In this document: positions 41,542 through 59,158 of the stretch, piece by piece
How positions within the stretch are numbered: position 1 is the stretch's first letter
Layout: each line of letters starts with the position of its first letter
Program-made: the position numbers and the translations under genes
Notes under the pieces: generated by a model
Seen by the model: only the letters and a program-made list of their open reading frames with translations
Told to the model about the DNA's origin: nothing
The model's database searches: none
IMG/VR virus record: IMGVR_UViG_3300047480_000504
DNA: 64,000 nt
Reading direction: 5' to 3' (one strand)
Source of the DNA: a virus
Taxonomy: Duplodnaviria > Heunggongvirae > Uroviricota > Caudoviricetes

Positions 41542-44415
41542 ATGATTCGCATTAGACTAATCAACGAAGGCCGTGTAGTTAAACAAATTACCAGCCGCTT
41601 ACACGAAGGTGTTGTACTTGAGCAAATTAAAAAGTACAAGGATCCGTACGACACTGTTCAAATCGTCGAAGGCGAATTGAGTGAAGGTGCAAAAGATATG
41701 TTGCATCACGTTGCTAAAAAGATTGTACCAGCCGCGCTGGCCGCAGGTATGGCAATGAGTGGCGCAAGTAATGCACAAGCACAAGGCGGGGCAAATCCAC
41801 ATTATCCAGGTTTGAATCATTCAGTTGGCCAACAGTTGTCTGACATTTTTAGCCCTAACTATAAAGAATTAAGACGCCAGCGTGACCACCAACGCTCCAC
41901 TGAACGTCAAGTATGGGACGCAGAACAAAACGAAATTCGTAAGCAACGAGTAAATGCCGCTCGAGCTGCCGCAGGTGGCGGCAACCAACCGGTAATTTAC
42001 GATCAAAGTCGATTAAGCCAAGATGGTAAGTCTTATATCATTTACGGCATTGACAACAAAGTACGCCGTATCCCAGTTGCAGGTACAGAATATATGCACG
42101 GTGACAGCCAACGCTTGCCACACTATATTACAAGTGGTGGCAATGTGTTGTATGTTCGTCACCCACATGCAGTGACCGAAAGTGTAGCGGAGGGCACAGA
42201 TCCAAATAAACAATCACACGCAGAAGCATTCAAAAGCGAAACTGACACTATGAAGCCAGATACTAAAAAGTATGTGGGTAGAAAAGGTGGCAAGGAAGTT
42301 CATGCTAAAAAAGATGCACAGGGCAATGTCAAGTTCTATCACAGAGATGGTATCAAAGGTCCATTAAAAGCAGTAAATGAAGGTGTAGCTGAAGGCTATA
42401 CAGTAACTCGTGGCATTGATCGTGAACGTTATCAAGAGCGTCCAGGCTTAGAAGGCCCATTCTCTACTCGCAGTGGTAAGGTTGTGTATTACGATCCCCA
42501 AGAAGGCAAGTATTACGATCCCGAAACTGACTTTTACATTGGCCACGAAGATTACGCCAAGATGGACGAGGATGCACCAGCTCTAGTAAAAGGTGCCGCA
42601 GGACTGGCATTAGGCGGCTTAGCTGCCGCAGGTGCTCCTGCTATTGTTGCTATCTTGGGCCCATTGTTAGGTATCCCAATGGCTGCATACGGTGCTTATA
42701 GTGCCGCTAAGTTAGGCATGAAGGGTGTAGAAAAGCTATGGGACATGGCTTCAGATAAATTAGGCGGCGATGATAAAGTTGCACAATACACTAATGCCAA
42801 GTTGGCCACACTGCCACCAGAGCAGGCTAAAGCAGGTGCGGCAGTAGTTAAAAAGATTGGCGAAAGCAAGCAAGGCGTAGTCGAAAGCGATCCAAATGCT
42901 ACAGTAGGTACTATTCCTTCAACAGGTACAAGTGGTGGTACAGGTCGCACACAATTTGCCCCAACAGGTAAAACAACTAACGCTAAGTTTAACAAGAACG
43001 GCCAAATTGAATTAGACACAGAACAAGAAGACGACGGCAGTGTCAACTTAGATCCAGATGCAGTAAAACAATTACAACAAGCTGGCGTAAAAATTAAAGA
43101 GACTGATGATGACGGCAGAGATAAATTCTATTATCAACGCAACAACATCTGGAGAGTCATGGACGGTGACGATCTAGTTGACGAATACAAAGCCCAACGT
43201 AACGAAATTGTTGGCGCTAAAAAGTTGCTGGCTCGATATGACGATGAAGGTTATGATGTAGACCGTGTAATTAGCCCAATGGGATTTGTTACATACTTGT
43301 ATGGCAAACCAGTGGATGAAGCTACAATAAGCGAAAGTGACAGTCCAGTGGCTAGTGCTATTGCTCGTCGTATTATGAGTCAGCGTCTTGACCTGCTACA
43401 AAAATATGGTCCCGTAAAAGTAACAGCCGCCATTGACGAAGTTGCTGACTTTGTAGGTGATGTAGAAGAAATTGGTAGTAGCGATGTAAGCGGTTGGGTC
43501 AAGCACGTTGAACAAATGTTACGTGACAATCCAACAGCGGCATTTGGCGAAGCGTCTGACACATTAGAAGGTATCCTAAGCAAGTACAGTGCTGACTATG
43601 CCAAGTTCAAAGCAGGTGGCGACATTGATGAAAACCAAGACTTCTTTGACGCATTGTACGCATACTATTCTGAATCGGGTGAAATGCCATACGGCGTACA
43701 AAAAGCCCGCGATGGCGATCCGTATGAGTGGATTACACAACGTTTAGATCACGAATCCGGTGTATCACCAGTTATTGAAGCAGATGGTGACGAAGCAAGT
43801 GCAGATCAAAACATTATTATGCAAATCCGCAAAGCAAGTGATTACGAAAAGCCAACTAAGATCGAACTAGCCGACGGTACTGAAAGCGTTATTGCTCCAA
43901 ACATTGCCAAGCAATTATTGGCCAAGTTTGATAAAATGAAGCCGGAGAGCAAGGAGCTATTGCAAAATACACTAAACACAGAAGAAGGCTTTAAAGAAAT
44001 CATTGCTTATTTTGGTGGTGGTGTACGTGAACAAGCGGCTGCTCGTGTTGGCAATATCATGCAAAGTGCAATGGCCGAAGCAGGTTATGGACGCTATGAT
44101 CGTCGCGATGCTTACCAACGTGATTATGATAGCAGTGTAGCAGGGATGGGCAAGCGACAATCGTATGCTTATCAAATGGACGGTGGCGCCAATGATGAAG
44201 GTTGGGACAAGCCAGAACAAGAACGAGCCTACTATAAAAAGTCACCGGTCCCAGCTAAAAAAGGCTATTACTTCTACAATGTACCAGCTGATCAAACTGC
44301 TAAAGCAGAAGAACTTGGCTTGTTCAAAACAAAAAGCGGCAAATGGTACAGTCCATTTGAAAACACACGTGCCAACATGTTCTTTGGCGCAGGCAGATAT
44401 TGGGAGCCAAAATAA
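41542..44415 (+). CDS. very large (957 aa) protein with central Gly/Ala-rich hydrophobic segment
   Basis: RBS AAAGGGACAAAAATG. Central segment GAAGLALGGLAAAGAPAIVAILGPLLGIPMAAYGAY looks membrane-active. Confidence 0.55.
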   Translation: MIRIRLINEGRVVKQITSRLHEGVVLEQIKKYKDPYDTVQIVEGELSEGAKDMLHHVAKKIVPAALAAGMAMSGASNAQAQGGANPHYPGLNHSVGQQLSDIFSPNYKELRRQRDHQRSTERQVWDAEQNEIRKQRVNAARAAAGGGNQPVIYDQSRLSQDGKSYIIYGIDNKVRRIPVAGTEYMHGDSQRLPHYITSGGNVLYVRHPHAVTESVAEGTDPNKQSHAEAFKSETDTMKPDTKKYVGRKGGKEVHAKKDAQGNVKFYHRDGIKGPLKAVNEGVAEGYTVTRGIDRERYQERPGLEGPFSTRSGKVVYYDPQEGKYYDPETDFYIGHEDYAKMDEDAPALVKGAAGLALGGLAAAGAPAIVAILGPLLGIPMAAYGAYSAAKLGMKGVEKLWDMASDKLGGDDKVAQYTNAKLATLPPEQAKAGAAVVKKIGESKQGVVESDPNATVGTIPSTGTSGGTGRTQFAPTGKTTNAKFNKNGQIELDTEQEDDGSVNLDPDAVKQLQQAGVKIKETDDDGRDKFYYQRNNIWRVMDGDDLVDEYKAQRNEIVGAKKLLARYDDEGYDVDRVISPMGFVTYLYGKPVDEATISESDSPVASAIARRIMSQRLDLLQKYGPVKVTAAIDEVADFVGDVEEIGSSDVSGWVKHVEQMLRDNPTAAFGEASDTLEGILSKYSADYAKFKAGGDIDENQDFFDALYAYYSESGEMPYGVQKARDGDPYEWITQRLDHESGVSPVIEADGDEASADQNIIMQIRKASDYEKPTKIELADGTESVIAPNIAKQLLAKFDKMKPESKELLQNTLNTEEGFKEIIAYFGGGVREQAAARVGNIMQSAMAEAGYGRYDRRDAYQRDYDSSVAGMGKRQSYAYQMDGGANDEGWDKPEQERAYYKKSPVPAKKGYYFYNVPADQTAKAEELGLFKTKSGKWYSPFENTRANMFFGAGRYWEPK

Positions 44416-45269
44416 TGAAATTCACAGACTTAGGCGATAAAGGACCAGAATTCAAACTGCAAAGTGTAGCAGAAGGCGGATTTAAAAATAAATTTGCAGA
44501 ATTCTCTGGCTATGGCAACTACATGCGAAGCCGTGCTCCTAATGTATTCAAGCATTTTGGTCTACAGGTTATTAGCAAAGAATATACCGAAGACGAGGAC
44601 ATCCAAACCTATACAGTACAAGGCGACAGAGACTCGATTGACCAGGCCCGCGCTTATTTGGAGCGCAGTGATCAATTTGGCGGGGTTATCTACAAGCAAG
44701 GTGTAGGCGAAGGCTTTAAGAACACATACAACGTAGGCGATCGCATAGATGGACCACTTGGTACTGGCACTATTGTTGCTGTATCTCCAAACATCAATAT
44801 GGATGGCAAAATCAAAGTCAAACTAGACGATCCAGCTCGTGCAGGTGAAGATGGCAAAGAACGTGACACATTTGTTCTTAATACAACACAAGTAAAGCAT
44901 ATTGCCGACGAAGCCAGTTTAGCACAAATGCGTGACTACTTTAATCAAGCTGACACTGATTCAGTACAAGTAGATCGCAATTATGATGCGCCAGGCCGGA
45001 AACAGAATCCCGCAGGTGTGCCACCAGAGATTCAAGCCTTGGTGAATAAAATGTACCACGCTGGTAAAATCAGCCCGCAAGAGTTTGAAGTACTAAGAAA
45101 GTTTCAGCAGAAGACTAAAATCAATGTAGGTATTCGCGAAGCTGATAAAAATCCTTATGCAATTGGCATGGCACAAGCAATGAAAAGCACCGGTGACCGA
45201 CCACCACTAAAGAAAAGCACTATTAACAAGGCGCACGAAATCGCCCGTGCTATTAAAAAAGATCAATAA
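44415..45269 (+). CDS. hypothetical protein
   Basis: TAATG overlap with the upstream gene. Confidence 0.45.
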   Translation: MKFTDLGDKGPEFKLQSVAEGGFKNKFAEFSGYGNYMRSRAPNVFKHFGLQVISKEYTEDEDIQTYTVQGDRDSIDQARAYLERSDQFGGVIYKQGVGEGFKNTYNVGDRIDGPLGTGTIVAVSPNINMDGKIKVKLDDPARAGEDGKERDTFVLNTTQVKHIADEASLAQMRDYFNQADTDSVQVDRNYDAPGRKQNPAGVPPEIQALVNKMYHAGKISPQEFEVLRKFQQKTKINVGIREADKNPYAIGMAQAMKSTGDRPPLKKSTINKAHEIARAIKKDQ

Positions 45270-45281: not shown

Positions 45282-45917
45282 ATGATTGAATTAACAATTG
45301 ATATCTTAGAAGCATGCTTGCCCGAAGCCAAGCGAAGTAACTTAGAAAAGTTTGTAGAAGGTTTAAACGAAACGTTTGAACACTTTGAAATTGACACGCC
45401 AAAGCGTATGGCCATGTTTATTGCACAAACTGCTCACGAGTCTGGCAACTTTGCCGCAACCCAAGAAAACTTAAACTACAGTGCCAAGGGCTTAACTGGT
45501 ACATTTAAAAAGTATTTCCCTACAGAAGAGTCAGCTGTACCATATTCTCGCAAGCCCGAAAAGATTGCCAACAAGGTATATGGCGGACGTATGGGCAATG
45601 GTCCAGAAAGTTCTGGTGACGGTTATAAGTATCGTGGTCGTGGCGTTATTCAATTAACTGGCAAAGACAACTACACTGCCTGCGGTAAAGCATTAGATTT
45701 AGATTTATTAACTGATCCAGATTGTGTAGCTGAAAACCCAGTTGCAGTATTAAGTGCAGGTTGGTTCTGGAACACACGCCGATTAAATGATTGGGCCGAC
45801 AAAGGTGATATCACTACGGTTACTAAAAAGATCAACGGTGGTACAATTGGTTTAGCCGATCGTAAAAAGCATTATGAGCATATTTTAGAAGTACTCGAAG
45901 AGCTAGACAGCAAATAA
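45282..45917 (+). CDS. GH19-family lysozyme-like endolysin
   Basis: RBS AACAGGAGATTGATATG. MFIAQTAHESGNF ... YKYRGRGVIQLTGKDNY ... AGWFW. Confidence 0.65.
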   Translation: MIELTIDILEACLPEAKRSNLEKFVEGLNETFEHFEIDTPKRMAMFIAQTAHESGNFAATQENLNYSAKGLTGTFKKYFPTEESAVPYSRKPEKIANKVYGGRMGNGPESSGDGYKYRGRGVIQLTGKDNYTACGKALDLDLLTDPDCVAENPVAVLSAGWFWNTRRLNDWADKGDITTVTKKINGGTIGLADRKKHYEHILEVLEELDSK

Positions 45918-45983: not shown

Positions 45984-47276
45984 TTGCTTTATAAGTATCA
46001 CATGCGAGAAATGATATGGTACTGTGATCACAAAAATGACAATCCTTTTGAATTGCACAGCTACCTACAGCAGTTCATTACTAATAACACTGACAACATA
46101 GATCATTTTACAGTACAACCTGCGATTGATTTAACTATACTGCCTGAATTTGAATCTGCAATAACAGTAAAAACATTTCCCGATTATAAAATCAATTCAA
46201 ATGGTGTTGTGGTAATTGGACTGCACGGTGGCTGGGACAAAATTAAACTCAAACTAATCACAGAATGGTTCATGTCAGACTCTAATAGATCACGTGCCTG
46301 GCAAGATGACTCTTGTCGTATCGTACTTGATTACAGCATGGAGGGCTTTGGCGAAGAAGCGTTTGGAGACTTGTATAATTGGAGCAGGGAGCATGGTCTC
46401 GAAGATAGACTTGTTTATGTAAGCGGTGACTTAAACATACAAGACAACTATAGAACTTGGTGCGCACACTATCGTGTTCGACCTGCAATGACAGTTTCAT
46501 ATTACGGATACTTTGCAGTATGGGCCAGCAGGCAACTACGAGCTACCCAACAAACAACAAGACGTCGTCGTTATATGAGTTTAAATCGACGTCCGCATTA
46601 TCATCGCATTATGATGATGACTATACTAGAACGCCGGGGCTTAATCGAACATGGTACTATTAGCATGCCCCGAGACTTTGAGGAACCTGATATTGGATGG
46701 GCAAAAGACCAATGGGATTTACGCAGACTATGGGACGAGTTAAAAGATTTACAAATTGGCTTTTTAGATCGTTATGAAAGTGCATTTCAATCCATGTATA
46801 ACAAACTGCCGCTAATAGCCGATAGAACAGACTTTGAAACCAATCATGCACTGGACTTTAACACAGACTTGTACAGTGAACACCCGGTCAACTTGGTTAC
46901 AGAAACTTTATGCTTTACCACCAGTGCATTTGCATCAGAGAAAATCTGGAAGCCAATGGCAGCAGGACAGATATTTTTAGTACTAAGTGGTCCTTACTAT
47001 CTGCGTGGTTTAAAGCGCATTGGCTTTCGTACGTTTGCTCCGTACATTAACGAAGAATACGATGAAGAACCAGAACCAATTGCTCGGGCTAATCTGGTAG
47101 CTCGCGAGTTAAAACGTCTGATAAGTATGACTGACGAGGAATTTGATGCAATGCTGGCCCAATGCCAGACAGTAATTGAACATAATCAACAATTGGTTAC
47201 AGATCAAATTAAAATGAAAGCAACAGTTGCTCGTGACATAGTACGCACATTAGAAGGTAAACGTGGAACCAATTAA
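45984..47276 (+). CDS. putative glycosyltransferase-like protein (GT paralog 1)
   Basis: C-terminal block TETLCFTTSAFASEKIWKPMAAGQIFLVLSGPYYLRGLKRIGFRTFAPYINEEYD is shared with 48726 (C-terminus) and 51068. Its EK/G motif spacing is GT10-like. Confidence 0.35.
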   Translation: MLYKYHMREMIWYCDHKNDNPFELHSYLQQFITNNTDNIDHFTVQPAIDLTILPEFESAITVKTFPDYKINSNGVVVIGLHGGWDKIKLKLITEWFMSDSNRSRAWQDDSCRIVLDYSMEGFGEEAFGDLYNWSREHGLEDRLVYVSGDLNIQDNYRTWCAHYRVRPAMTVSYYGYFAVWASRQLRATQQTTRRRRYMSLNRRPHYHRIMMMTILERRGLIEHGTISMPRDFEEPDIGWAKDQWDLRRLWDELKDLQIGFLDRYESAFQSMYNKLPLIADRTDFETNHALDFNTDLYSEHPVNLVTETLCFTTSAFASEKIWKPMAAGQIFLVLSGPYYLRGLKRIGFRTFAPYINEEYDEEPEPIARANLVARELKRLISMTDEEFDAMLAQCQTVIEHNQQLVTDQIKMKATVARDIVRTLEGKRGTN

Positions 47277-48723
47277 AATTCATTTAAATCGAGTAAAGCA
47301 ACAATTGGACGCTGTCAGCAGTAGCTATTGCGTGGCCAAATGGCAGCAAGTAACTATTCATCTTGCAACGGGACAAACACATTCGTGTCACCACCCAGCA
47401 ACACATCATATTCCTGTAGAGGAAATTGCAGTAAATCCTAGTGCGCTACACAACACTAAATTCAAAAAACAACAACGTAAGAAGATGCTGGAAGGCGAAC
47501 GTCCTCCAGAATGTGACTACTGCTGGAAGGCAGAAGATAGTCCAGGACACCACTTCTCGGACCGTGTGCATAAAAGTGCTGACCCATTATGGGGACAACC
47601 ATTTTTAAAGCTGTCGTCACAAATGCCTTGGGACGCTGATGTTACCCCTGCTTATGTAGAAGTATCGTTTTCTAATGTATGTAACTTTGGTTGTGCATAT
47701 TGTTCGCCAGACATTAGTTCTACAATCATGCAAGAAGCCAAACGGTACGGTCCCGTTAAACTTGACGGTGGACGACTTGATCGTGACATTATCAAGCTAG
47801 AACAACAAGGCCGCATGCCAATTCCTAATAGGGAACACAATCCGTACATTGAAGCATTTTGGAAGTGGTGGCCTACGCTGTATCCCAAGCTAAAAGTATT
47901 CCGCATCACTGGTGGGGAACCCCTGCTGGCCAAGGACACATTTAAAGTACTTGACTGGATCATTGAGCATCCAAATCCAGAACTTGACCTGGCTATTAAC
48001 AGTAACTTGGGTGTAGATGAAAAGCTATTAAATGAGTTTTTAGAAAAAGCCAATTATATTCAAGAAAACAATTTGGTAAAGAGTTTAAAGATCTTTACAA
48101 GTTGCGACACCTGGGGCAAACAAGCTGAATATATTCGTACGGGCTTAAACTATAAACAATGGTATCGCACATTGTGGGACATTACACTACGCTATCCAGC
48201 ACTGAGTATTACAGTAATGGTCACATTCAACTTGTTAAGTATTCCACGCTTTGAATCATTCTTGCGTGATATGTTGGCATTACGTCAAGCGCCAAGTGTT
48301 AGCATCAACAACTCGGGCACCCGAGGAGTTGGATTGGACTTTCCGTACCTGCGCCATCCACGTTATCTAAGTTCGCTATTAGCAGATCCTTACATGCTAG
48401 TATTACTAGATCGCTCTATTCAGTTTATGCGTCACAATACTGCAACATATCAATACGTTGATTATCACGATGGCTTTTATCCACATGAAGTAGAAAACTT
48501 GCAACGTGTGTACAACATTGCATCAGCAGAGTGGCAAGGCAGTTTAGACAATCAGGTAAGTAGACGTGACTTTTATTTGTATATCGTTGAACACGATCGC
48601 CGTAATAACACCAACTTTAAAACAGTGTTTCCAGAAATTGGTTATTTCTACGATCAATGTAAGCGAGAATACGAAGAATCGCAGGCTGTACGAGAAGCAG
48701 TTGAAAATAAAGACAAAGAATAA
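47263..48723 (+). CDS. radical SAM enzyme
   Basis: CNFGCAYC (CxxxCxxC) within VSFSNVCNFGCAYCSPD. GTG start. Confidence 0.65.
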   Translation: MEPIKIHLNRVKQQLDAVSSSYCVAKWQQVTIHLATGQTHSCHHPATHHIPVEEIAVNPSALHNTKFKKQQRKKMLEGERPPECDYCWKAEDSPGHHFSDRVHKSADPLWGQPFLKLSSQMPWDADVTPAYVEVSFSNVCNFGCAYCSPDISSTIMQEAKRYGPVKLDGGRLDRDIIKLEQQGRMPIPNREHNPYIEAFWKWWPTLYPKLKVFRITGGEPLLAKDTFKVLDWIIEHPNPELDLAINSNLGVDEKLLNEFLEKANYIQENNLVKSLKIFTSCDTWGKQAEYIRTGLNYKQWYRTLWDITLRYPALSITVMVTFNLLSIPRFESFLRDMLALRQAPSVSINNSGTRGVGLDFPYLRHPRYLSSLLADPYMLVLLDRSIQFMRHNTATYQYVDYHDGFYPHEVENLQRVYNIASAEWQGSLDNQVSRRDFYLYIVEHDRRNNTNFKTVFPEIGYFYDQCKREYEESQAVREAVENKDKE

Positions 48724-48725
48724 TT

Positions 48726-51071
48726 ATGAAACGTGTGGCAATGATTGGATTAGGTAAGCTAGGCTTGCCATGTGCAGAAGTAATGGCCGAACATTACGAA
48801 GTATGCGGATATGATATCAACACAGTTGATCCCACTATGACTGTGGCTATTAAAAGCTCCATTGAAGAAGCTGTTAAAGGCGCTGACATTATCTTTGTTG
48901 CAGTACCTACACCGCACAATCCACAATACGGTGGCGAAACTCCTATCTCCAACATGACACCATGTGACTTTGATTATGGTCCTGTTATTCGAGTATTTGA
49001 ACAAATCAATCCACACGTTACACAAGATCAATTGGTAGTGTTGATCAGTACAGTACTACCCGGCACTGTACGTGATCAACTGATTGGTTATCTGACCAAT
49101 GCACGTTTCATTTACAATCCATATCTTATTGCCATGGGATCTGTCAAATGGGACATGGTTAATCCAGAGTGTTTGATCATTGGTACAGAAGATGGTAGTA
49201 CCACTGGTGATGCACAAGAGCTAATTGAATTTTACAAGCCCTTAATGAAGAACGAGCCCCGTGTTAATGTGGGTACATGGGACGAAGCAGAAGCTATCAA
49301 GATCTTTTACAATACATTTATTTCAGCCAAGATTGGTCTTGTTAACATGATTCAAGACGTTGCTGAAAAGAATGGCAACATCAACGTAGATGTGGTAACA
49401 GATGCGCTTAAAGCTGCCACACAACGTATCACTGGACCACGCTATTTGACAGCAGGCTTGGGTGATGCAGGTGCTTGCCATCCCCGCGACAACATTGCCC
49501 TGCGTTGGTTAAGTGGCAAGTTAGATCTGGGCTATGACATGTTCCATGCTATCATGAGTGCTCGTGACAGTCAGGCACAGGCCATGGCCAGTAAGTTAGT
49601 ACGACTTGCACAAGAAAACAATCTTCCTGTTGTTATTCACGGAAAGGCATACAAGCCGTATGTTCCTTATACAATTGGCAGCTATAGCTTATTAGTAGGA
49701 CACTTTGTTGAGCATTCTGGCGTAGAGTTATTTTACGTTGACCCGTTAACCGGAGATGATACTGCGCCAGAAAGTCCAGCTGTAGTGTTAATGGCACACA
49801 ATCCAGCTATTACGTATGCAGGAACTGGCGTTGAAGTAAAAGCAGATGAGTTTTATTATGATATTGCGCCAGGTAGCATCTTAGTTGACCCATGGCGCAC
49901 AATTAAAGAGTTTCCAGGTTGCAAGGTAGTACATTACGGCAATCCTAAATTTAGTTTACCAACGCTTAATGGCCGTATTTTAAATCCAGTTAACAGTTGT
50001 GATATCTTTGTTGAATTGTATTCACAGTTTAAATTTACTTCTAAGCGTGAAGAGCCAATGACATACTTTGCACTAGCACCAATCGAAGCAGTTAACAAAG
50101 ACAGTACGGCACAACAATATATTAAATTATTGCACACTCGTATTGGTGAATTTAAACCCAATGACCGCATTGTGTTTATTACACCGCACGAAGGTATGAT
50201 TGCACATGCGTTTATGTGGCAAGATAGGTTAAACAAATTTTGGCCTGAATTGACCAAAGACCAATGGTATTATGCCAATGAGTTACAAAGTCCCAACCAA
50301 GCACTTGCGGTATTACAAAAAACAAAAGATGATATTAACTTGTTAAATTTTGTTTCAATCAATAATTGGGTAGATAGAAATATTGTAGTTAATCACGCTT
50401 ACGAAAACAAAACTGCAAACTTTTTAAGTTACAATCGTGTTATCAAAGCACATCGTTGTCATTTGGTAGGCGAAATGCGACTACATAATTTAATTGATGG
50501 CAATATGGTTAGCTTTGTCCCAAGCGGCGAACTGTACCCAGGGGTAGTTAAAACTGCAACTGAAGTTGCTGAAAACTCACTGTACTTGCACCCCGACGTA
50601 AAAGCAAGAATCTTACCTGTATTAGATAAGCCATTGACCATTGACGAATACGATGTAACACAAAATGGTCCGCAAGTAAGCAATCATTATGAGCAAGCAT
50701 TGCTAAGTGTAATTGCCGAAACCACTTACGAAAACGGTGATGTGTTTATCAGCGAAAAGACATTCCGTGCTATTGCACACGGGCATCCGTTTATTATTGT
50801 AGGACCAGCCGAGTCTTTGCGTGTATTACGAAGCATGGGATTTGAAACATTCGACGGCGTCATTGACGAGTCTTACGATCAAGAATATGACGCAAATACT
50901 CGCATGTGGAAGATTATCACAGAATTAAATCGCATCAACTCATTGCCAGATCAAGAACGTTTTGACTTGTTCCATAAGTTAATGAACATTGCCAACCGCA
51001 ACAAAGAAAAGTTTGATTCTACCCCGTCATATAACAACGGCACATTTTGGAAATTTGTCAGCGAAATATGA
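48726..51071 (+). CDS. nucleotide-sugar dehydrogenase-like N-terminal domain fused to a glycosyltransferase-like C-terminal domain (GT paralog 2)
   Basis: N-terminus VAMIGLGKLGLPCAE...GYDIN (Rossmann) and GDAGACHPRDN (the GGxCxPKD-like catalytic Cys). C-terminal block FISEKTFRAIAHGHPFIIVGPAESLRVLRSMGFETFDGVIDESYD. Confidence 0.5.
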   Translation: MKRVAMIGLGKLGLPCAEVMAEHYEVCGYDINTVDPTMTVAIKSSIEEAVKGADIIFVAVPTPHNPQYGGETPISNMTPCDFDYGPVIRVFEQINPHVTQDQLVVLISTVLPGTVRDQLIGYLTNARFIYNPYLIAMGSVKWDMVNPECLIIGTEDGSTTGDAQELIEFYKPLMKNEPRVNVGTWDEAEAIKIFYNTFISAKIGLVNMIQDVAEKNGNINVDVVTDALKAATQRITGPRYLTAGLGDAGACHPRDNIALRWLSGKLDLGYDMFHAIMSARDSQAQAMASKLVRLAQENNLPVVIHGKAYKPYVPYTIGSYSLLVGHFVEHSGVELFYVDPLTGDDTAPESPAVVLMAHNPAITYAGTGVEVKADEFYYDIAPGSILVDPWRTIKEFPGCKVVHYGNPKFSLPTLNGRILNPVNSCDIFVELYSQFKFTSKREEPMTYFALAPIEAVNKDSTAQQYIKLLHTRIGEFKPNDRIVFITPHEGMIAHAFMWQDRLNKFWPELTKDQWYYANELQSPNQALAVLQKTKDDINLLNFVSINNWVDRNIVVNHAYENKTANFLSYNRVIKAHRCHLVGEMRLHNLIDGNMVSFVPSGELYPGVVKTATEVAENSLYLHPDVKARILPVLDKPLTIDEYDVTQNGPQVSNHYEQALLSVIAETTYENGDVFISEKTFRAIAHGHPFIIVGPAESLRVLRSMGFETFDGVIDESYDQEYDANTRMWKIITELNRINSLPDQERFDLFHKLMNIANRNKEKFDSTPSYNNGTFWKFVSEI

Positions 51072-52198
51072 TACAATTTGTTAGTACAGAAAACTATCAG
51101 TTTCCGTATGAGAACGTACTCAACGAATTTCCAGATTTGAATATTATATTGTGTTTATTACGCCATGAAGCTACTGATGATTTTAGAAAAGATCTATACG
51201 AGTCTGTGGTTAAACGATTGGCGGGAGTTACTGCAATAGATCGCTTGATCATTGACGATATAACCGAAGCTGTTAACCTTGACAAGGTCGACGAAGTTTT
51301 TGATCATGTTGTTGATAGATTGGGTGTCCCACGTCAAAATATAATATTCATAAATGGCGGCGAGGAGCGTAGAAACTATGTTGTCCCGTACCCAACATTT
51401 TATCATGTAGACTCTTTAAGACTAGAAGGCTATAGCAAGGAAACAGTAGTACCTTGGCACGCTCGTACAAACTTGTTAATTAGTTTGTGCCGCAGGCCAA
51501 ATTGGTTCAGGGTAGCGTTAACTGAAGAACTAATTAAACGCAATTTATTAGAACATTCAATCGTAAGCTGTGGGTCCGATAAAGCGGCAATTGACGACGG
51601 CTGGATTGATTTATTTGTAACGCCCGAACTACAGCATTATTTTCCATTGACAGTTGACGGCTTTATTTCTCGAGAAGATGAATATACTTCAAATGGAACA
51701 GAGTTTACAAACGCATACGTTAACATTGTGTCAGAAACAAGTCATGACGTTCGACCCAATGTAGCCATAATGGTTCATGATTGGGTAATACGAACAAAGC
51801 AAGCCACTGGCTATCAATGCCCCGATGGTTTACATCACTGGGAACGACTGTTTGTAACTGAAAAAACAATTAAGCCTTTTGCAATGAGGCAAATCCCAAT
51901 TTTTAATACTGTCAAGCATCATGTTAAATTTTTACGTACATTGGGCTTGGATTTATTTGACGATGTAATTGATCAAAGTTATGATAACATTGACGATCCT
52001 TTACAAAGAGTGCAGGCTGTTGCAGTGCAGGCTGAAATAGCATACAAACGTGGTTTTGAATATTTTCGAAACATACCAAATATAGAAGCACGATTGGAGC
52101 ATAACGTTGAGTGTATTCGTCGCCAACGAAAAGTAAAAATGCATGAAGCAGAACAACAACTTAGGGAATTTTTAAATCATGGGAATGGTACCATATAA
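51068..52198 (+). CDS. putative glycosyltransferase-like protein (GT paralog 3)
   Basis: ATGA overlap with the upstream gene. Block VTEKTIKPFAMRQIPIFNTVKHHVKFLRTLGLDLFDDVIDQSYD. Confidence 0.35.
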   Translation: MIQFVSTENYQFPYENVLNEFPDLNIILCLLRHEATDDFRKDLYESVVKRLAGVTAIDRLIIDDITEAVNLDKVDEVFDHVVDRLGVPRQNIIFINGGEERRNYVVPYPTFYHVDSLRLEGYSKETVVPWHARTNLLISLCRRPNWFRVALTEELIKRNLLEHSIVSCGSDKAAIDDGWIDLFVTPELQHYFPLTVDGFISREDEYTSNGTEFTNAYVNIVSETSHDVRPNVAIMVHDWVIRTKQATGYQCPDGLHHWERLFVTEKTIKPFAMRQIPIFNTVKHHVKFLRTLGLDLFDDVIDQSYDNIDDPLQRVQAVAVQAEIAYKRGFEYFRNIPNIEARLEHNVECIRRQRKVKMHEAEQQLREFLNHGNGTI

Positions 52199-52796
52199 AA
52201 TATTAGACAATCGCTTTCGTGAATTGCAAGTAGACACTTCAAAATGTGTTGTAGAAATTGGAAGCGAACGCGGCGAAGGAAGCACGGCTTACTTTAGAGA
52301 CTGGGTATCAGTTCATGGTGTAGATTTCCACACTGTGGACGTTACAGATGATGCACTACAACATTTTACCAAGCATTATGGCGGTGCAGGTGATATCAAA
52401 TTTCATATTACTGAAACAGGACACGCATGGTGTCGCGATGTATTGCCAACTTTGGGCAAGCAAATTTCTGTGCTGTATCTAGACAACTTTGATTGGATTG
52501 ACCCTGTTAATTTACAGTACCAATGGCTACACGATCAAATTGCGGCTTACGCGGCCCATGGCGTTGTTATGAATAATGAAAACAGCCAAGAAGAACATAG
52601 ACTACAAACGCTATATTGCTTGCCGCACATGGCGCCACGAAGTATCATTATCATAGACGACTCGTGGCCCGACACTACTAGTCCAACAGGATGGGGAGGT
52701 AAGTGCGGTACTGCTATTCCAATGATGTTAGACGCTGGATATCAAATACTAATAGATGAAGGAAAAATGGTGTTATATAGAGGTTTAGAGCTTTAA
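52179..52796 (+). CDS. class I SAM-dependent methyltransferase-like protein
   Basis: Motif I-like VVEIGSERGEGSTAYF. Confidence 0.4.
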   Translation: MGMVPYKILDNRFRELQVDTSKCVVEIGSERGEGSTAYFRDWVSVHGVDFHTVDVTDDALQHFTKHYGGAGDIKFHITETGHAWCRDVLPTLGKQISVLYLDNFDWIDPVNLQYQWLHDQIAAYAAHGVVMNNENSQEEHRLQTLYCLPHMAPRSIIIIDDSWPDTTSPTGWGGKCGTAIPMMLDAGYQILIDEGKMVLYRGLEL

Positions 52797-52810
52797 GAGA
52801 ATAGGTATCA

Positions 52811-53422
52811 TTAAATTATATTCAAATGGTAACCAAACTTTATGCTGTAACGTAGCTCGTTAGAATAGTTGCCGCCGCTGTGCCAACTAAAAGGATTATT
52901 AGCCGAATACCATCCTTGCCCAAATGCACAAGGCATCATGATTGGGGAATTGCCAGAATGATCACTGTAAAAAGTAGTACTTTTTTCTTCTATCACATTG
53001 TGATTAAAGAATACCATCCCAGCAGTAACGGTTTGGCGGCAATCTAAGTGTATACCGGTATCAAATCCTGGTAAGTCTTTGCATAACTCGCAATAGGGTG
53101 AAGTATTTGATTTCAATTGATCATACGTATATCCGCCCCACTCAGACTTAAAAAATGGATGTTGCCATAAGCGTTCTAATAGAGTGCTTTGTTGCTCTTG
53201 TATATTTTTACAAAACTCAGATAGTACAGGCAAATGATTAAATTCACTACATGTTTGTCTCAGATAGAATTTGGTCTTACTATCTGCACTAACAATAATA
53301 CTCTTCCAATCTACTTGTTCAAATTCCAGACGGTCTGGTATGTCAAGACTTAGTTGATACAGTAATGGACGTGGCTCTGACAGTAAGGTAAACATACGGC
53401 TTTCTAATCCCAAATAAATCAA
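52811..53422 (-). CDS. hypothetical protein (minus strand)
   Basis: ORF convergent with the methyltransferase gene and co-oriented with the NMO-like gene. Confidence 0.4.
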   Translation of the reverse strand: MIYLGLESRMFTLLSEPRPLLYQLSLDIPDRLEFEQVDWKSIIVSADSKTKFYLRQTCSEFNHLPVLSEFCKNIQEQQSTLLERLWQHPFFKSEWGGYTYDQLKSNTSPYCELCKDLPGFDTGIHLDCRQTVTAGMVFFNHNVIEEKSTTFYSDHSGNSPIMMPCAFGQGWYSANNPFSWHSGGNYSNELRYSIKFGYHLNII

Positions 53423-53520
53423 CTTCTCTACTACTTTTGTATAGGTAGCTGAAAGTATTATGAACTATTTATAGATTTAGATAGCTTTAAGAGCCTGGCT
53501 TAAAGTCAGCCGGATAAATT

Positions 53521-54444
53521 TTAAAGGTCTTTAACTAAACGTTGAACAATTTCTTCGCAAGTGAGAATTTCATTTGCGTGTTCAATGCCTTTGCCAATGA
53601 ATACGTGCCCGCTTTCTGGATTTTGTATTCCTACCATTAGCCCACGTGTGTTATTTTGATTGTCTACTGGTGTATGACTAAAAATAATAGCGTTTTGGCT
53701 GTCGCTATCGGTTTTACCATTTTCTAAACGTTTAACATCACTGCCACTTGATGCAACTAGCTTGAGTTTTGTTTCTGTGGAAATTTTACTTTCAACAGAC
53801 ACTGCAAACATAGTACCAATGCCCACACCAAACGCACCGCGATCCATGTAGTATTTTAACTGCTCGCTTGTTCCTACTCCGCCTGATGTAATAACTCGGT
53901 GTGTTTTGTTTTTTGTTGTAAAACGTTCAAATAGCTGTTCTAATGTTTCACCAGTTAGATTACCACGACCAGCACCGTCAGGTCCTTTAAGGATAATACC
54001 GTCGGCCCCAACCAACGTATCTCCAGGTAGTAGAGTCTTGGTAAACACCATTGTTCCATTTTTCCTAAGTTGAGAAATTATTTTTGGCAAAGTGACCCTG
54101 CGTCTATTAACAGAATCTGGATGCTGATCTTCTAAAATGATTTCAACGGCTTTGACTTGATAAGTTAGCAATAATTCTAATAGGCCCGGCAGGTCTAATA
54201 GGTTGCCAACGTCAGTGCTTAGTAAAATAGAAGTATCACCTACAGCATTTTTATATCCGTCAATATCGCGTTTGAGTGCATCTACCCCAATGACGCCAAC
54301 TCCGGTAAAGTAATTAAAGATGCTTAGGCTTGGCAAGCAACCTGCTTTACGCACTGCTACTGCTAAATTTAAATCTGATACTTTGTTCATTGCCATACAA
54401 GCAATAGGATACTTGGTATTGAAAAATTCGGTAAATGTTTGCAT
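53521..54444 (-). CDS. nitronate monooxygenase / NPD-family FMN TIM-barrel oxidoreductase-like
   Basis: Start trimmed to MQTFTEF. YPIACMAMNKVSDLNLAVAVRKAGCLPSL (PIIQAPMAGVS...AGGLG-like) and ITSGGVGTSEQLKYYMDRGAFGVGIGTMF. Confidence 0.5.
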   Translation of the reverse strand: MQTFTEFFNTKYPIACMAMNKVSDLNLAVAVRKAGCLPSLSIFNYFTGVGVIGVDALKRDIDGYKNAVGDTSILLSTDVGNLLDLPGLLELLLTYQVKAVEIILEDQHPDSVNRRRVTLPKIISQLRKNGTMVFTKTLLPGDTLVGADGIILKGPDGAGRGNLTGETLEQLFERFTTKNKTHRVITSGGVGTSEQLKYYMDRGAFGVGIGTMFAVSVESKISTETKLKLVASSGSDVKRLENGKTDSDSQNAIIFSHTPVDNQNNTRGLMVGIQNPESGHVFIGKGIEHANEILTCEEIVQRLVKDL

Positions 54445-54494
54445 ACAGTACTTATTATGAAAACTCACAGGTGTATGTGCCAATAAATATCTAC

Positions 54495-55253
54495 ATGAAA
54501 ATAGTAATTGCAACCGGTGGTTTTGATCCTGTTCATTCAGGACACATAAAATATTTACAAGAGGCTCGCGAGTATGGCGACAAGTTAGTTGTTGGCCTAA
54601 ACTCTGATGCTTGGCTTGAACGCAAAAAGGGACGTCCATTTATGCCCTTTGCTGAACGACAAGCTGTACTAGAAGGATTACGCTGTGTTGATGAAGTTGT
54701 GGCGTTTGATGACAGCGACGGTAGTGCAGTTAAGCTATTAGAAAGTTTCCAATCAAGTTACTCATACGCTGAAATTATCTTTGTAAATGGTGGAGATCGT
54801 ACTGCGGCAAACATCCCCGAAATGTCAGTCAAGAACGTACTGTTTAAGTTTGGTGTAGGTGGCGACAACAAAGTCAATTCCAGTTCCTGGATCTTAGAAG
54901 AATGGCGAGCACCTAAAACAGAACGACCATGGGGTTACTATCGTGTACTACATGAAGTACCGGGAATGAAAGTTAAAGAGCTTACAGTCAATCCAGGCAA
55001 AAGTTTGAGTATGCAACGTCATCAACACCGTTCTGAATATTGGATTGTAAGCGAAGGTAGGGCTAATGTTAATAGTATGATGGCCGGAGGATACGCCTTA
55101 CCAAGTAGAGAACTGTCACGCCATGAGGAATACAAAGTCCCAGTTGGGGAATGGCACCAACTTACTAATCCTTATAGTGAGCCAGTTAGGATCATTGAGA
55201 TCCAGTACGGATCAAGTTGCGTAGAAGAAGATATTGAGCGTAAAGACACTTGA
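54495..55253 (+). CDS. cytidylyltransferase (nucleotidyltransferase) fused to a cupin domain
   Basis: MKIVIATGGFDPVHSGHIKYL has the (T/H)xGH nucleotidyltransferase signature. The C-terminus VNPGKSLSMQRHQHRSEYWIVSEGRANV is cupin-like. Confidence 0.6.
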   Translation: MKIVIATGGFDPVHSGHIKYLQEAREYGDKLVVGLNSDAWLERKKGRPFMPFAERQAVLEGLRCVDEVVAFDDSDGSAVKLLESFQSSYSYAEIIFVNGGDRTAANIPEMSVKNVLFKFGVGGDNKVNSSSWILEEWRAPKTERPWGYYRVLHEVPGMKVKELTVNPGKSLSMQRHQHRSEYWIVSEGRANVNSMMAGGYALPSRELSRHEEYKVPVGEWHQLTNPYSEPVRIIEIQYGSSCVEEDIERKDT

Positions 55254-55854: not shown

Positions 55855-56142
55855 ATGGAACAGCACGTTTCAGTTCATCATTGGCGCTATGAAGATGGTT
55901 GGCACAATGTGCCTGCTGTCTTACGTAAGAAAGGTGACGTTGCCCGAGAGTTTATTAAAGAAATCGTAGGATGGCATTGCTGGGTTTATTGCAACAACCA
56001 CTATGAATTCATTGAATGGATGATGGAACATTGTCCCCAAGCCGATTGTACTCCACGATTTAACTCCGGCGACCCAATGATCACTGTACATATTAAAGAC
56101 AAAGACGAGGCGGCATACTTTATGCTGAACTTTAATGTCTAA
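55855..56142 (+). CDS. WS-array family member (divergent C-terminus)
   Basis: FIEWMMEHC mid-motif, with C-terminal DKDEAAYFMLNFNV. Confidence 0.45.
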   Translation: MEQHVSVHHWRYEDGWHNVPAVLRKKGDVAREFIKEIVGWHCWVYCNNHYEFIEWMMEHCPQADCTPRFNSGDPMITVHIKDKDEAAYFMLNFNV

Positions 56143-56413
56143 GTGGTTAAACTATAACTTGTATCTTGGCGATGCAGTCGAAGAAGAAGTTTACGAGTGG
56201 CTAGCTGAAAACATCGCTCCTGTGCTAATGACAACTCAAGCCGAATACGATTACTTTAAAATGTATCACGGCGATCACGATTTGTGGATCATGCACTCAG
56301 CAGACGTAAGTGATGTAAGCAGTAGTTCTTGGGATACTATAACGCAAATTAGCTTTAAGAATAAAGAAGATGCGCTACTGGCCAAGCTACGATTTGGAGG
56401 CTCAATCCAATGA
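56135..56413 (+). CDS. WS-array family member (divergent)
   Basis: VYEWLAENIAPV mid-motif, with C-terminal NKEDALLAKLRFGG. Confidence 0.45.
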   Translation: MSKWLNYNLYLGDAVEEEVYEWLAENIAPVLMTTQAEYDYFKMYHGDHDLWIMHSADVSDVSSSSWDTITQISFKNKEDALLAKLRFGGSIQ

Positions 56414-56655
56414 GCTGGTTAGTACCAAAGTACACATTAAAAAAGGGATGGGGCCATACAGTCCGCCTGGTTGATCCTTATGCTGACTCAAATGAATTTG
56501 GTAGTATAGTCGATTACGAAGCAGTGGACCGTATCCTGGAATGGTCCACTGAAAACTCGTGCGGGACCAGAATTGGATACGACATGTGGAAATTTAGGTC
56601 GCAAGAAGAAGCAGAAGAGTTTATAATGGTGTTTACGTTAAGATACGGAAAGTAG
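56410..56655 (+). CDS. WS-array family member (divergent)
   Basis: ILEWSTENSCG mid-motif, with C-terminal SQEEAEEFIMVFTLRYGK. ATGA overlap. Confidence 0.45.
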   Translation: MSWLVPKYTLKKGWGHTVRLVDPYADSNEFGSIVDYEAVDRILEWSTENSCGTRIGYDMWKFRSQEEAEEFIMVFTLRYGK

Positions 56656-56656
56656 T

Positions 56657-56851
56657 ATGAGAGTTCTAAACAAACGCCATTGGCCCATCCAGTTTGATTT
56701 GCCCGTCAAGGACATGCACACAACTGATGATCGTATCATTTGGCTAAGGGAAAACTTTTCCAATGATGTGTGGCGTTTTAACGAACATAATTCTACATTT
56801 TGTTTTGCCAACAAAGATGATGCTGTAATGTTTAAGCTGGCCTGCTCATGA
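56657..56851 (+). CDS. WS-array family member
   Basis: IIWLRENFSND mid-motif, with C-terminal NKDDAVMFKLACS-stop. Confidence 0.5.
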   Translation: MRVLNKRHWPIQFDLPVKDMHTTDDRIIWLRENFSNDVWRFNEHNSTFCFANKDDAVMFKLACS

Positions 56852-57036
56852 CAACTTACGTGACATTGCCATTTAGGCCGTATCGAGAACCACTTGACTG
56901 GGCTAAAGAAAATTGCCCCAGTTATATCAGCAATGATGTACACATGGACGGATATAACAGCTACGACAATACTCGAATTGACTACTTCTTTGGCAACGAA
57001 GAAGATGCTATGTTGTTTAGGTTAGCGTGGTCATGA
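56848..57036 (+). CDS. WS-array family member
   Basis: LDWAKENCPSY mid-motif, with C-terminal NEEDAMLFRLAWS-stop. ATGA overlap. Confidence 0.5.
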   Translation: MTTYVTLPFRPYREPLDWAKENCPSYISNDVHMDGYNSYDNTRIDYFFGNEEDAMLFRLAWS

Positions 57037-58961: not shown

Positions 58962-59158
58962 AATATTATAACAAGAAAAAGATTGAAAGAAGTCTATGGA
59001 CTCGCGTCACAGTATCTTCTAATGACTACAACAAAGAAAGATTTTTATGGTGCCAGCGTCAAGAAAGTACTGGAAGGTTTTACAGATACTACGGAAACTT
59101 CAGCTGGTGGTTTGAACATAAAGAAGATGCCGCACTTTTTATATTGACTTGGTCATGA
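58958..59158 (+). CDS. WS-array family member
   Basis: ATGA overlap. C-terminus EHKEDAALFILTWS-stop. Confidence 0.5.
   Translation: MKYYNKKKIERSLWTRVTVSSNDYNKERFLWCQRQESTGRFYRYYGNFSWWFEHKEDAALFILTWS

Follow-up and report, generated by a model that had tools for sequence, protein, structure and literature searches.

A candidate glycosylation cassette with three GT-B-like paralogues in a marine pelagimyophage-like virus

The subject of this analysis is an island of eight genes, designated A to H, at positions 45,984 to 55,253 of a 64,000-nucleotide stretch of a virus of the class Caudoviricetes (IMG/VR virus record IMGVR_UViG_3300047480_000504), and this whole stretch is referred to as the window. 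Three of the island's products, namely protein A, the C-terminal part of protein C, and protein D, belong to a very large protein family with a predicted GT-B glycosyltransferase (GT) fold, here called the GT-like family. They are accompanied by a radical S-adenosylmethionine (SAM) enzyme, a predicted nucleotide-sugar 6-dehydrogenase, and a nucleotidyltransferase joined to a cupin. Taken together, the genes may well encode a phage-autonomous cytoplasmic glycosylation cassette, a tentative reading that is held at slightly less than even confidence. An activated-sugar pathway serving three transferases had been proposed in an earlier, sequence-only reading of the same DNA, and this proposal was partly strengthened by the fold, a motif, gene fusions, and a conserved neighbourhood. 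The features of the island are listed below.

45282..45917 (+): GH19 lysozyme/chitinase-like gene, the upstream island boundary and outside the pathway (phrog_181 endolysin, E 1.9e-84)
45984..47276 (+): gene A, 430 amino acids (aa), belonging over its full length to the Pfam-less GT-B (GT10-motif-like) family (family hidden Markov model [HMM], E 6.5e-113)
46896..47066 (+): conserved putative donor-site block of A (…VTETL…FASEKIWKP…GFRTF…INEEYD), seen in alignments, with the E, E, and K that do not vary in the family
47263..48723 (+): gene B, 486 aa, radical SAM protein (NF033640) bearing a twitch-type auxiliary-cluster domain at its N-terminus
48726..49970 (+): gene C, N-terminal part (about residues 1-415), nucleotide-sugar 6-dehydrogenase (PF03721, PF00984, phrog_9148)
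50046..51071 (+): gene C, C-terminal part (residues 441-781), second GT-B (GT10-motif-like) paralogue (family HMM, E 1.2e-83)
51068..52198 (+): gene D, 376 aa, third GT-B (GT10-motif-like) paralogue, the protein used for modelling
52179..52796 (+): gene E, 205 aa, divergent Methyltransf_24 protein and probable SAM methyltransferase of class I, a weak call
52811..53422 (-): gene F, 200-203 aa, accessory protein with no assigned function
53521..54444 (-): gene G, 291-307 aa, flavin mononucleotide (FMN)-dependent NMO/FabK-like TIM-barrel oxidoreductase, accessory (PF03060)
54495..55253 (+): gene H, 252 aa, HIGH-motif (HldE domain II/TagD-like) nucleotidyltransferase with a type II phosphomannose-isomerase-like cupin (PF01467, PF01050)

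All eight open reading frames (ORFs) of the sequence-only reading were recovered by the ORF listing at or near their original coordinates. The same island was present on two other metagenome contigs (L003 and L004; loci used for comparison are cited by such numbers), where independent gene calls agreed and gave product sizes of 486, 781, 376/383, 205/203, 200/203, 291, and 272 aa. Genes A to E lie on the plus strand with operon-like packing (A/B overlap of 14 nt, B-C gap of 2 nt, C/D overlap of 4 nt, and D/E overlap of 20 nt), F and G are on the minus strand, and H has the orientation of A to E.

The GT-like family

Paralogy of the three proteins had been proposed from a common 45-aa block. 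It was found to be real and to extend beyond that block, which is the best-conserved stretch of a much longer similarity. In pairwise BLASTP comparisons, A matched D with an E value of 5e-12 over 241 columns and the C-terminus of C with an E value of 3e-12 over 228 columns, and D matched the C-terminus of C with an E value of 9e-8 over about 230 columns. The family HMM spans residues 10-429 of A, 441-781 of C, and 8-382 of D. Four residues (E67, E223, E265, and K266 in the numbering of D) were invariant among 112 diverse family members and four others (R142, R148, Y305, and D306) nearly so; the conserved residues, including the invariant E/E/K set and the arginines, are kept in each of the three paralogues of the window. 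A word-indexed search with D retrieved just 29 relatives; a profile search over every representative retrieved at least 12,290 clusters at E ≤1e-3, and 8,300 at E ≤1e-10, many of them tandem two-domain proteins. No Pfam, PHROG, or NCBIfam model matched A, the C-terminal part of C, or D, and no Pfam family matched any of the 112 members. Family HMMs built from 14 and from 112 sequences gave no meaningful match when compared with all PDB sequences.

The family was located by peptide pattern in viral and cellular genomes. Only 3 loci were confirmed in 185,579 bacterial and archaeal species genomes (one genome per species), and at least 406 were confirmed in IMG/VR; the cellular scan used one pattern and the viral scan two, so that the ratio of viral to cellular loci is approximate, though clear in its direction, and the figure of 3 is a lower bound. 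Of the three cellular loci, one has a DNA polymerase B gene as its neighbour, and a second comes from a metagenome-assembled genome, on a contig of 7.8 kb. The family is thus abundant in viruses and almost absent from cells, and these auxiliary genes therefore do not derive from a host.

An AlphaFold model of D, computed from a 14-sequence alignment, was confident (predicted local distance difference test [pLDDT] 85.6, predicted template modelling score [pTM] 0.85). In this model the protein adopts a GT-B fold, with two Rossmann-like alpha/beta domains and a predicted donor site in the C-terminal domain, and the suggestion that the shared block belongs to a glycosyltransferase-like fold was thus upheld at the level of the model. 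Foldseek comparison of the model with the PDB returned weak matches. Comparison with viral models returned many uncharacterised proteins from uncultured tailed phages, together with a 788-aa dehydrogenase fusion resembling gene C and one mimivirus protein; a chlorovirus glycosyltransferase was likewise among the structural matches.

The sequence-only reading had also compared the block with GT10-type transferases. For this comparison, residues 184-346 of the Helicobacter pylori fucosyltransferase FucT (PDB 2nzw, with the sequence taken from the PDB) were aligned to the 112-member profile using hhalign. The alignment pairs NVVxETS of the family with NLCFENT, FxTEKTxK with YVTEKIID, and the longer FxTEKTxKaF..QIPIF with YVTEKIIDAYFSHTIPIYWG, and therefore the invariant E265 and K266 fall on E249 and K250 of the FucT donor site. 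The alpha-1,3-FucT motif reads F-x-L/V-x-F-E-N-S...Y-x-T-E-K. The ETS...F-x-TEK pattern is aligned with FENT...YVTEK of GT10 fucosyltransferases (H. pylori FucT 2nzw/5zoi, human FUT9, and plant FUT11/FT13), an Arg at the start of the C-terminal domain is conserved in both, and one GT-like relative lies amid GDP-6-deoxyhexose genes. The two differ in that the N-terminal domain of the GT-like proteins is unrelated in sequence to that of GT10 enzymes, and in that the two motif halves are parted in the GT-like family by a variable insertion of 10-40 residues. Neither Glyco_transf_10 nor Glyco_tran_10_N of Pfam matched A, C, or D (E up to 0.1) or any of the 112 members, and no GT10 structure in the PDB was matched by the family HMMs. 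Membership in GT10 was accordingly ruled out, as no sequence model matches the 112 members, and what stands of the earlier comparison is an apparent likeness of motif and site. As far as can be read from these alignments, the proteins resemble GT10-type, GDP-sugar-binding GT-B enzymes. There was no sequence similarity to the T4-type DNA glucosyltransferases (GT63/GT72), including T4 beta-gt, and no sequence-level link to any CAZy family was found.

Domain fusions and neighbouring genes were also considered. The GT-like domain is fused to the dehydrogenase in the window, to an SDR epimerase in L007, and elsewhere to Methyltransf_24, GDSL esterase, or DUF6492 domains; the dehydrogenase fusion recurs in L016-L020, L023, L029, and the BFVD entry A0A6J5TB28. 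At L013, two tandem GT-like copies are flanked by a GDP-mannose 4,6-dehydratase gene and two epimerase/reductase genes, and this setting is the one hint that GDP-beta-L-fucose may be a donor. Judged from these sequences, the fusions and the L013 context all point to nucleotide-sugar or glycan chemistry.

These fusions bear on the possibility that no glycosyl group is transferred at all. Under this alternative, the GT-B-like proteins would move, for example, a polyol-phosphate from a CDP-alcohol (with H as a TagD-like and the paralogues as TagF-type enzymes), or would be non-catalytic binders of sugar nucleotides, and the island would make a small molecule or a teichoic-acid-like polymer. The nucleotidyltransferase domain of H is equally near to glycerol-3-phosphate/ethanolamine-phosphate cytidylyltransferases and to heptose adenylyltransferase, which suits this alternative, as does the missing link to CAZy. 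The alignment of the invariant E...EK residues with a sugar-nucleotide site speaks against it, and so do the fusion partners and neighbours, which are nucleotide-sugar enzymes (6-dehydrogenase, 4,6-dehydratase, and epimerases); it was considered very improbable.

The other enzymes and the proposed pathway

Gene B matched NF033640, 'twitch domain-containing radical SAM protein', at 306.2 bits against a curated cut-off of 170, over residues 19-462, in agreement with the radical SAM enzyme originally called from the motif CNFGCAYC. This CX3CX2C motif occupies residues 140-147 (C140, C144, and C147). Four further cysteines near the N-terminus (C23, C42, C84, and C87) were invariant in 25 homologues down to 47% identity, a pattern consistent with a second Fe-S cluster. 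The family comprises more than 8,000 homologous clusters at E ≤1e-5 and at least 583 loci in IMG/VR. Searches of the PDB with the single sequence and with a profile matched only a 20-residue GGEPLL-type stretch of MoaA, and no solved relative was found. Two or three tandem NF033640 copies were observed at L024-L026, L054-L061, L067, L074, L076, L081, L086, L091, L092, L094, and L174.

The N-terminal part of C matched PF03721 (62.4 bits) and PF00984 (56.6 bits), both over the Pfam cut-offs, and phrog_9148 (E 1.2e-87); its C-terminal nucleotide-binding domain scored under the Pfam cut-off. The catalytic Cys is retained, GACHPRD of gene C aligning with GGSCFPKD of PDB 4a7p, and the description of this part as a UDP-glucose/GDP-mannose-dehydrogenase-like domain fused to a GT-like domain was borne out. 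The dehydrogenase is 57-59% identical to that of Synechococcus phage Bellamy and 46% identical to that of Pelagibacter phage HTVC008M, and in relatives it is a stand-alone gene of 405-455 aa. Its match to UDP-glucose dehydrogenases (E 5e-19) was a little stronger than that to GDP-mannose dehydrogenase (E 4e-11). All equivalog models scored far below their cut-offs, and TIGR03026 gave 146.1 bits against 189.8.

Both domains of H, CTP_transf_like (PF01467, 58.5 bits) and MannoseP_isomer (PF01050, 86.5 bits against a cut-off of 23.6), were above the Pfam cut-offs, and they agree with the cytidylyltransferase with a C-terminal cupin that had been proposed, with the start probably at 54495. This start (MKIVIATGGFDPVHSGH; MKIVIATGG...), giving 252 aa, is the most likely one because relatives measure 250-256 aa. 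The HIGH motif is GGFDPVHSGH, and the His/Glu metal motifs of the cupin read from the sequence are QRHQHRSEYW and VPVGEWHQLTNP. HldE domain II is the best-scoring named relative (TIGR02199, 87.5 bits against an equivalog cut-off of 181.5), models of TagD-type glycerol-3-phosphate cytidylyltransferase also match, and the PDB relatives are cytidylyltransferases, including the HldC-like 5x9q. An N-terminal guanylyltransferase of the NTP_transferase fold (ManC/AlgA type) was considered for H and rejected, the domain being CTP_transf_like.

The three remaining genes gave weaker or accessory assignments. Gene E scored 21.4 bits with Methyltransf_24 (PF13578), under the cut-off of 26.3, and about 11 of 120 homologues among the matches listed carry PF13578; its motifs VVEIGSERGEGST and VLYLDNFDW were read from the sequence, and BLASTP found no similarity between E and the Methyltransf_24 domains that are fused to GT-like proteins. 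The call of a SAM-methyltransferase-like protein is therefore retained as a weak resemblance to Methyltransf_24, with a score under the Pfam threshold. Gene G matched NMO (PF03060) at 54.9 bits against a cut-off of 28, as expected of the FMN TIM-barrel oxidoreductase placed there on the minus strand; the FabK model TIGR03151 gave 37 bits, far below its cut-off of 453, and PDB 5gvh and 3bo9 were matched at E about 3e-5. Its start is most likely 54444 (M66, 307 aa) or 54396 (291 aa), not 54639, because the NMO/FabK profile begins at residue 68 of the long ORF and relatives measure 291-331 aa. Gene F had no match to Pfam, PHROGs, NCBIfam, or the 2-oxoglutarate (2OG)-oxygenase of HTVC008M, and occurred only in L018 and L096 among the loci examined. 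An HxD...H pattern was noticed in F and set aside, as no match supported it.

On these assignments, the following pathway is proposed. The cupin of H, which keeps the metal ligands of type II phosphomannose isomerase, would convert fructose-6-phosphate to mannose-6-phosphate or carry out a related ketose/aldose isomerisation. After a mutase step supplied by the host, the HIGH-motif nucleotidyltransferase of H would form a nucleoside diphosphate (NDP)-sugar, and the dehydrogenase half of C would oxidise C6 of this sugar to a uronic acid by way of its conserved Cys, much as in the AlgA/AlgD route to GDP-mannuronate. The putative two-cluster radical SAM enzyme B would tailor the sugar or the acceptor; A, the C-terminal half of C, and D would add sugars successively to a common acceptor through a GT10-like NDP-sugar site; and E (methyltransferase), G (FMN oxidoreductase), and F would supply lineage-specific tailoring steps. 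The analogy with AlgA/AlgD would lie in a type II phosphomannose isomerase cupin that is fused to a sugar-1-phosphate nucleotidyltransferase and paired with a 6-dehydrogenase. Unlike AlgA/ManC, the nucleotidyltransferase of H has the HIGH-motif cytidylyl/adenylyltransferase fold and not that of NTP_transferase, and the order of the domains is reversed.

The cassette in related phages and its possible acceptors

For comparison, viral loci were annotated locally using HMMs, 80 of them with the radical SAM gene as anchor and 79 with the GT-like family. A GT-like gene was present in 38 of the 80 radical-SAM-anchored loci, within two genes of the anchor in 37 of these; conversely, 32 of the 79 GT-anchored loci had the radical SAM gene and 29 had the nucleotidyltransferase-cupin gene. 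Owing to this co-occurrence, the radical SAM, GT-like, and nucleotidyltransferase-cupin genes are regarded as a mobile functional unit, of which the window, judged by its genes, is an expanded version with three putative transferases. The cassette was found in three unrelated genome contexts, here called lineages 1 to 3.

Lineage 1 consists of the window and L016-L029, with radical SAM proteins 63-96% identical. Its order is p957-p289-GH19 lysozyme, GT-like gene A, radical SAM gene, a variable middle, nucleotidyltransferase-cupin gene, conserved genes of 83 and 96 aa, and a run of small genes; at L005 and L007, DNA polymerase B comes after the small genes. Found in the variable middle are further GT-like genes, a GT-like/epimerase fusion, genes E, F, and G (G in only part of the lineage), and the dehydrogenase, which may or may not be fused to a GT-like domain. 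The GH19 gene is always directly upstream of gene A, which is the copy kept beside the radical SAM gene in all close relatives; its counterpart, of 424-439 aa, lies between the GH19 and radical SAM genes in L016-L026 and L029. At L024-L026, an additional NF033640 copy of 436-439 aa was seen between p957/p289 and the GH19 gene.

Lineage 2, with radical SAM proteins 45-50% identical, includes the cultured Ralstonia jumbo phage RsoM2USA. Here the order is giant fibre proteins (Gp53-like_C, Peptidase_G2), a conserved block, one or two radical SAM genes, often a GT-like gene, and many genes of 250-300 aa with no assigned function, a run that includes a nucleotidyltransferase-kinase fusion, a dehydrogenase, and a carbamoyltransferase. 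The fusion, of about 524 aa, joins NTP_transf_3 to an APH-type kinase (L040, 16702-18276; also in L036, L038, L039, L043-L045, L047, L071, and L079), and its layout is that proposed for the NDP-arabinose-forming DLP3 gp82 and RB69 gp52/53 (bioRxiv 10.1101/2025.06.16.659550). In RsoM2USA itself (L177), the radical SAM gene is at 217327-218748 of MG752970.1, encodes a protein of 38.6% identity, and lies downstream of a 7.6-kb giant gene among neighbours that are all annotated as hypothetical; this phage could be an experimental handle on the radical SAM family.

The order in lineage 3 is terminase, gp32, UvsX, a 79-aa gene, radical SAM gene, a 150-aa gene, GT-like gene, methyltransferase, nucleotidyltransferase-cupin gene, GT8, and helicase. 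Neither the 150-aa nor the 79-aa protein matched a homologue in the window.

Several acceptors were weighed for the proposed cassette. A structural protein made by the phage, such as a fibre or another virion protein, ranks first and is possible though doubtful; a glycan of the host envelope is rather unlikely, phage DNA more so, and any other acceptor less likely again. A phage-made acceptor is suggested by the position of the lineage 2 cassette right after the Gp53-like_C/Peptidase_G2 tail-fibre genes, by structural relatives in giant viruses, by the many tailoring enzymes, and by the soluble character of the proteins with no export genes. There are precedents in the capsid and tail-tube glycans reported for mycobacteriophages (Freeman et al. 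2023) and in the fibril and capsid glycans of giant viruses (PMC9614988). These systems resemble the island in their soluble virus-encoded glycosyltransferases, methyltransferases, and nucleotide-sugar enzymes, which in their case act on virus-made proteins; their enzyme families differ from those seen here.

Remodelling of the host surface is the first alternative to glycosylation of a phage-made acceptor. An auxiliary lipopolysaccharide (LPS)/O-chain cluster would alter the envelope polysaccharide on undecaprenyl-linked intermediates at the inner membrane face during a long latent period, and superinfection would be blocked or recognition by grazers and phages changed. This has been the published reading for islands of pelagimyophages and cyanomyophages with rfaE-like, UDP-glucose dehydrogenase, and glycosyltransferase genes (PMC7029224; PMC12801897). 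Bellamy and HTVC008M have dehydrogenases homologous to that of gene C within islands annotated as glycan-related, the cassette of lineage 3 is followed by a GT8 gene of the LPS type, and the hypervariable region is shared with envelope-directed curli genes. The near-absence of the GT-like family from cellular genomes (3 loci) beside its abundance in viral contigs is hard to reconcile with such a cluster. Moreover, none of the eight island proteins has a membrane-spanning segment (maximum 19-residue hydropathy <1.5) and all are predicted to be soluble, and Pfam and NCBIfam scans found no flippase, polymerase, or initiating phosphoglycosyl transferase in the island. Contigs of marine and of freshwater type both carry the cassette, and a Ralstonia phage from soil has its radical SAM gene, so that it would have to fit many different host pathways. 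On balance, host-surface remodelling appears rather unlikely.

Hydroxymethyl-pyrimidine DNA had been named first among the targets in the sequence-only reading, and this suggestion received no direct support. Searches by phmmer, a two-sequence HMM, and tblastn for homologues of thymidylate synthase, gp42, or 5-hydroxycytosine synthase gave no match, either in the 64-kb window or in 2.6 Mb of sequence lying within 10 kb of 170 related cassettes. In a broader form, the DNA alternative holds that the GT-B paralogues glycosylate a hydroxylated base with a phage-made NDP-sugar and thereby shield the genome from host nucleases. The lineage 3 cassette lies directly after uvsX in about 35 of the 79 loci, among gp32 and helicase genes, an order that mirrors uvsX-segA-beta-gt-42-43 of T4, and the lineage 1 cassette lies a few kb upstream of DNA polymerase B. 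Phage SP-15, whose DNA has a glucuronate-bearing base, encodes a homologue of the gene C dehydrogenase. DNA glucosyltransferases are a precedent for virus-only GT-B families, and clusters with three GT-B enzymes and NDP-sugar synthesis poly-arabinosylate DNA at 5-hydroxycytosine in RB69 and DLP3 (bioRxiv 10.1101/2025.06.16.659550). The nucleotidyltransferase-kinase fusion of lineage 2 shares the architecture of DLP3 gp82. Against this, systems of the T4 and RB69/DLP3 type depend on a thymidylate-synthase homologue, and the GT-like proteins have no sequence similarity to T4 beta-gt. As is generally reported, hydroxymethylcytosine genes are missing from T4-like marine phages. In addition, the carbamoyltransferase, amidotransferase-like NadE, epimerases, and methyltransferases of related islands suit a complex glycan better than base decoration, and DNA hypermodification was judged unlikely.

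On the broadest reading, the island would be one example of a widespread, virus-restricted self-glycosylation system made up of the GT-like family, the N-terminal-twitch radical SAM enzyme, and the nucleotidyltransferase-cupin fusion. T4-like and jumbo phages of aquatic habitats would use it to modify their own virion proteins or DNA, and not the host envelope, with a radical-tailored sugar of uronic or manno type. This is conceivable from the sequences and is held with confidence somewhat below even; if true, it would be a new chemistry of phage self-modification.

A number of observations weigh against a phage-autonomous glycosylation cassette with a phage-made acceptor. The hhalign alignment of the profile with residues 184-346 of 2nzw has an E value of 4.6e-5 at a probability of only 68.6% and with a single template sequence. 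The dehydrogenase and the nucleotidyltransferase score under the curated NCBIfam cut-offs, and their substrates therefore cannot be named. The cues of genome context conflict, with tail fibres in lineage 2, uvsX/gp32/helicase in lineage 3, and lysozyme and DNA polymerase in lineage 1. No characterisation of the GT-like family or of NF033640 was found in the literature, and such islands have been read in print as modifying the host O-chain (PMC7029224). Among the cultured phages in 50,697 records, gene A had no tblastn match, and RsoM2USA was the only phage with an NF033640 gene.

The kind of island is already known, since comparable islands have been published for pelagimyophages and cyanomyophages. 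In pelagimyophages, a hypervariable region holds curli genes, 'LPS-related' genes (rfaE, UDP-glucose 6-dehydrogenase, and glycosyltransferases), and radical SAM cassettes, which were tentatively read as modifying the host O-chain (PMC7029224); similar islands are stated for cyanomyophages (PMC12801897). The islands of HTVC008M (gp156-164) and Bellamy (gp217-228) share with the window the phage group, a hypervariable region, nearby curli genes, and a homologous dehydrogenase (46-59% identity), and pelagimyophage and cyanophage islands also have an rfaE-like nucleotidyltransferase, glycosyltransferases, methyltransferases, and radical SAM cassettes. The window differs from them in carrying three copies of an unannotated GT-B-like protein in place of GT2, GT8, GT11, and GT25 enzymes. 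In contrast to Bellamy and HTVC008M, it lacks carbamoyltransferase and NadE-like genes, its dehydrogenase is fused to a putative transferase, and its nucleotidyltransferase has a phosphomannose-isomerase cupin attached. Phage DNA glycosylation systems (T4 alpha-/beta-gt, arabinosyl-5-hydroxycytosine of RB69/DLP3, and hexosyl-cytosine of Pootjesviridae) are similar in their virus-restricted GT-B enzymes, in having several paralogues with NDP-sugar synthesis, and in that some cassette lineages lie beside uvsX and DNA polymerase. Unlike those systems, no cassette has a thymidylate-synthase-type hydroxylase or hydroxymethylase nearby and the transferases share no sequence similarity; the cassette has a radical SAM enzyme and a 6-dehydrogenase, which those systems lack. 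What appears to be new is a GT-B family that is very large and virus-restricted, has a GT10-like site, and is covered by no Pfam model; it is linked to an N-terminal-twitch radical SAM family and to a novel nucleotidyltransferase-phosphomannose-isomerase-cupin fusion.

Glycan-like islands are among the commonest and most variable accessory regions of abundant ocean phages, including those of SAR11-type and cyanobacterial hosts, and the present analysis places the 'hypothetical' genes of the island in the window in a large, almost virus-confined family of putative transferases with a recognisable sugar-nucleotide site. A compact portable cassette of about 4-8 genes makes the choice between host surface, virion, and DNA testable. 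Should the acceptor be the phage's own DNA or virion, the cassette would bear on defence evasion or host recognition by marine phages, and it could reveal new radical sugar chemistry.

The surrounding window

On its gene content, the window is from a pelagimyophage-like phage of the T4 superfamily, because it carries CsgG/curli genes, an adenylate-cyclase gene like those of HTVC008M and Melnitz, and tail-fibre-like genes at its start. The T4-like assignment of the sequence-only reading thus held at the level of the superfamily and was narrowed to a pelagimyophage-like phage. A nucleotide search of the island and the 16 kb upstream against the 50,697 phage records gave no match. The principal features outside the island are listed below.

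36592-38643 (+): 683-aa membrane-anchored adenylate/guanylate-cyclase-like protein (phrog_35576 over its full length, E 4e-232)
29001-29858 (+): CsgG (Pfam, E 2.8e-53), in a curli-like secretion module at 29001-32646
30006-30803 and 32083-32646 (+): curlin-like signal-peptide, Q/N/S/T-rich repeat proteins, flanking the CsgG gene
30807-31913 (+): a further secreted protein of the curli-like module (phrog_37870)
41542-45269 (+): p957 and p289, directly upstream of the GH19 gene and conserved in all lineage 1 relatives
2376-3896, 3901-4743, 7086-8102, 9062-9610, 12043-12882, and 20873-21547 (+): accessory enzymes of the hypervariable region

The cyclase-like protein is about 40% identical to the products of the HTVC008M and Methylophilales phage Melnitz genes. 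The curli-like module agrees with the curli operon described for pelagimyophages (PMC7029224). In some relatives, single ORFs match p957 and p289 together; a single Gly/Ala-rich segment of p957 is strongly hydrophobic (hydropathy 2.07 at residue 359), p957 also matches phrog_13298 over a short stretch, and the two proteins may be virion or ejection proteins. A second GH19 domain forms the C-terminus of a 407-aa protein at 24546-25769 (+); the one bounding the island is a stand-alone protein of 211 aa.

The island is slightly AT-richer (0.38-0.44) than the window (about 0.42), and since its composition is near that of the window there is no sign of recent foreign origin. The T4-type late promoter motif TATAAATA occurs 3 times in the window against 3.8 expected, and as it is not enriched no timing of expression was inferred; sigma-70-like sites were at chance level (36 found, 36.1 expected). 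One TATAAATA copy at 53466-53473 (-) is about 44 nt upstream of gene F and may be due to chance.

The accessory enzymes of the hypervariable region comprise a subtilisin-like protease (phrog_3677), a nitroreductase, a UvdE-like endonuclease (phrog_8420), a GNAT acetyltransferase, a TauD/TfdA-family 2OG dioxygenase, and a papain-family cysteine protease. An ORF with a collagen-like PPGPPGPPGPPG run at 18556-19056 (+) and a 71-aa Gly/Tyr-repeat ORF (GYGYPGYGYGFGYGYPGYG...) at 16665-16880 (+) are likely to encode structural or low-complexity proteins. Downstream of the island, about 16-17 tandem small genes (66-154 aa) at 55855-62278 (+) form a paralogous family whose products end in a motif like ...F(K/R)xKEDAxxFxLxWS, with EEDAVMFILRWS, KEDAALFMLTWS, and KNEAALFKLTWS as examples of the C-terminus. 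The array comes after the island, with DNA polymerase B beyond it in relatives, and similar runs of 80-100-aa genes follow the island in L003, L005, L007, and L016-L029.

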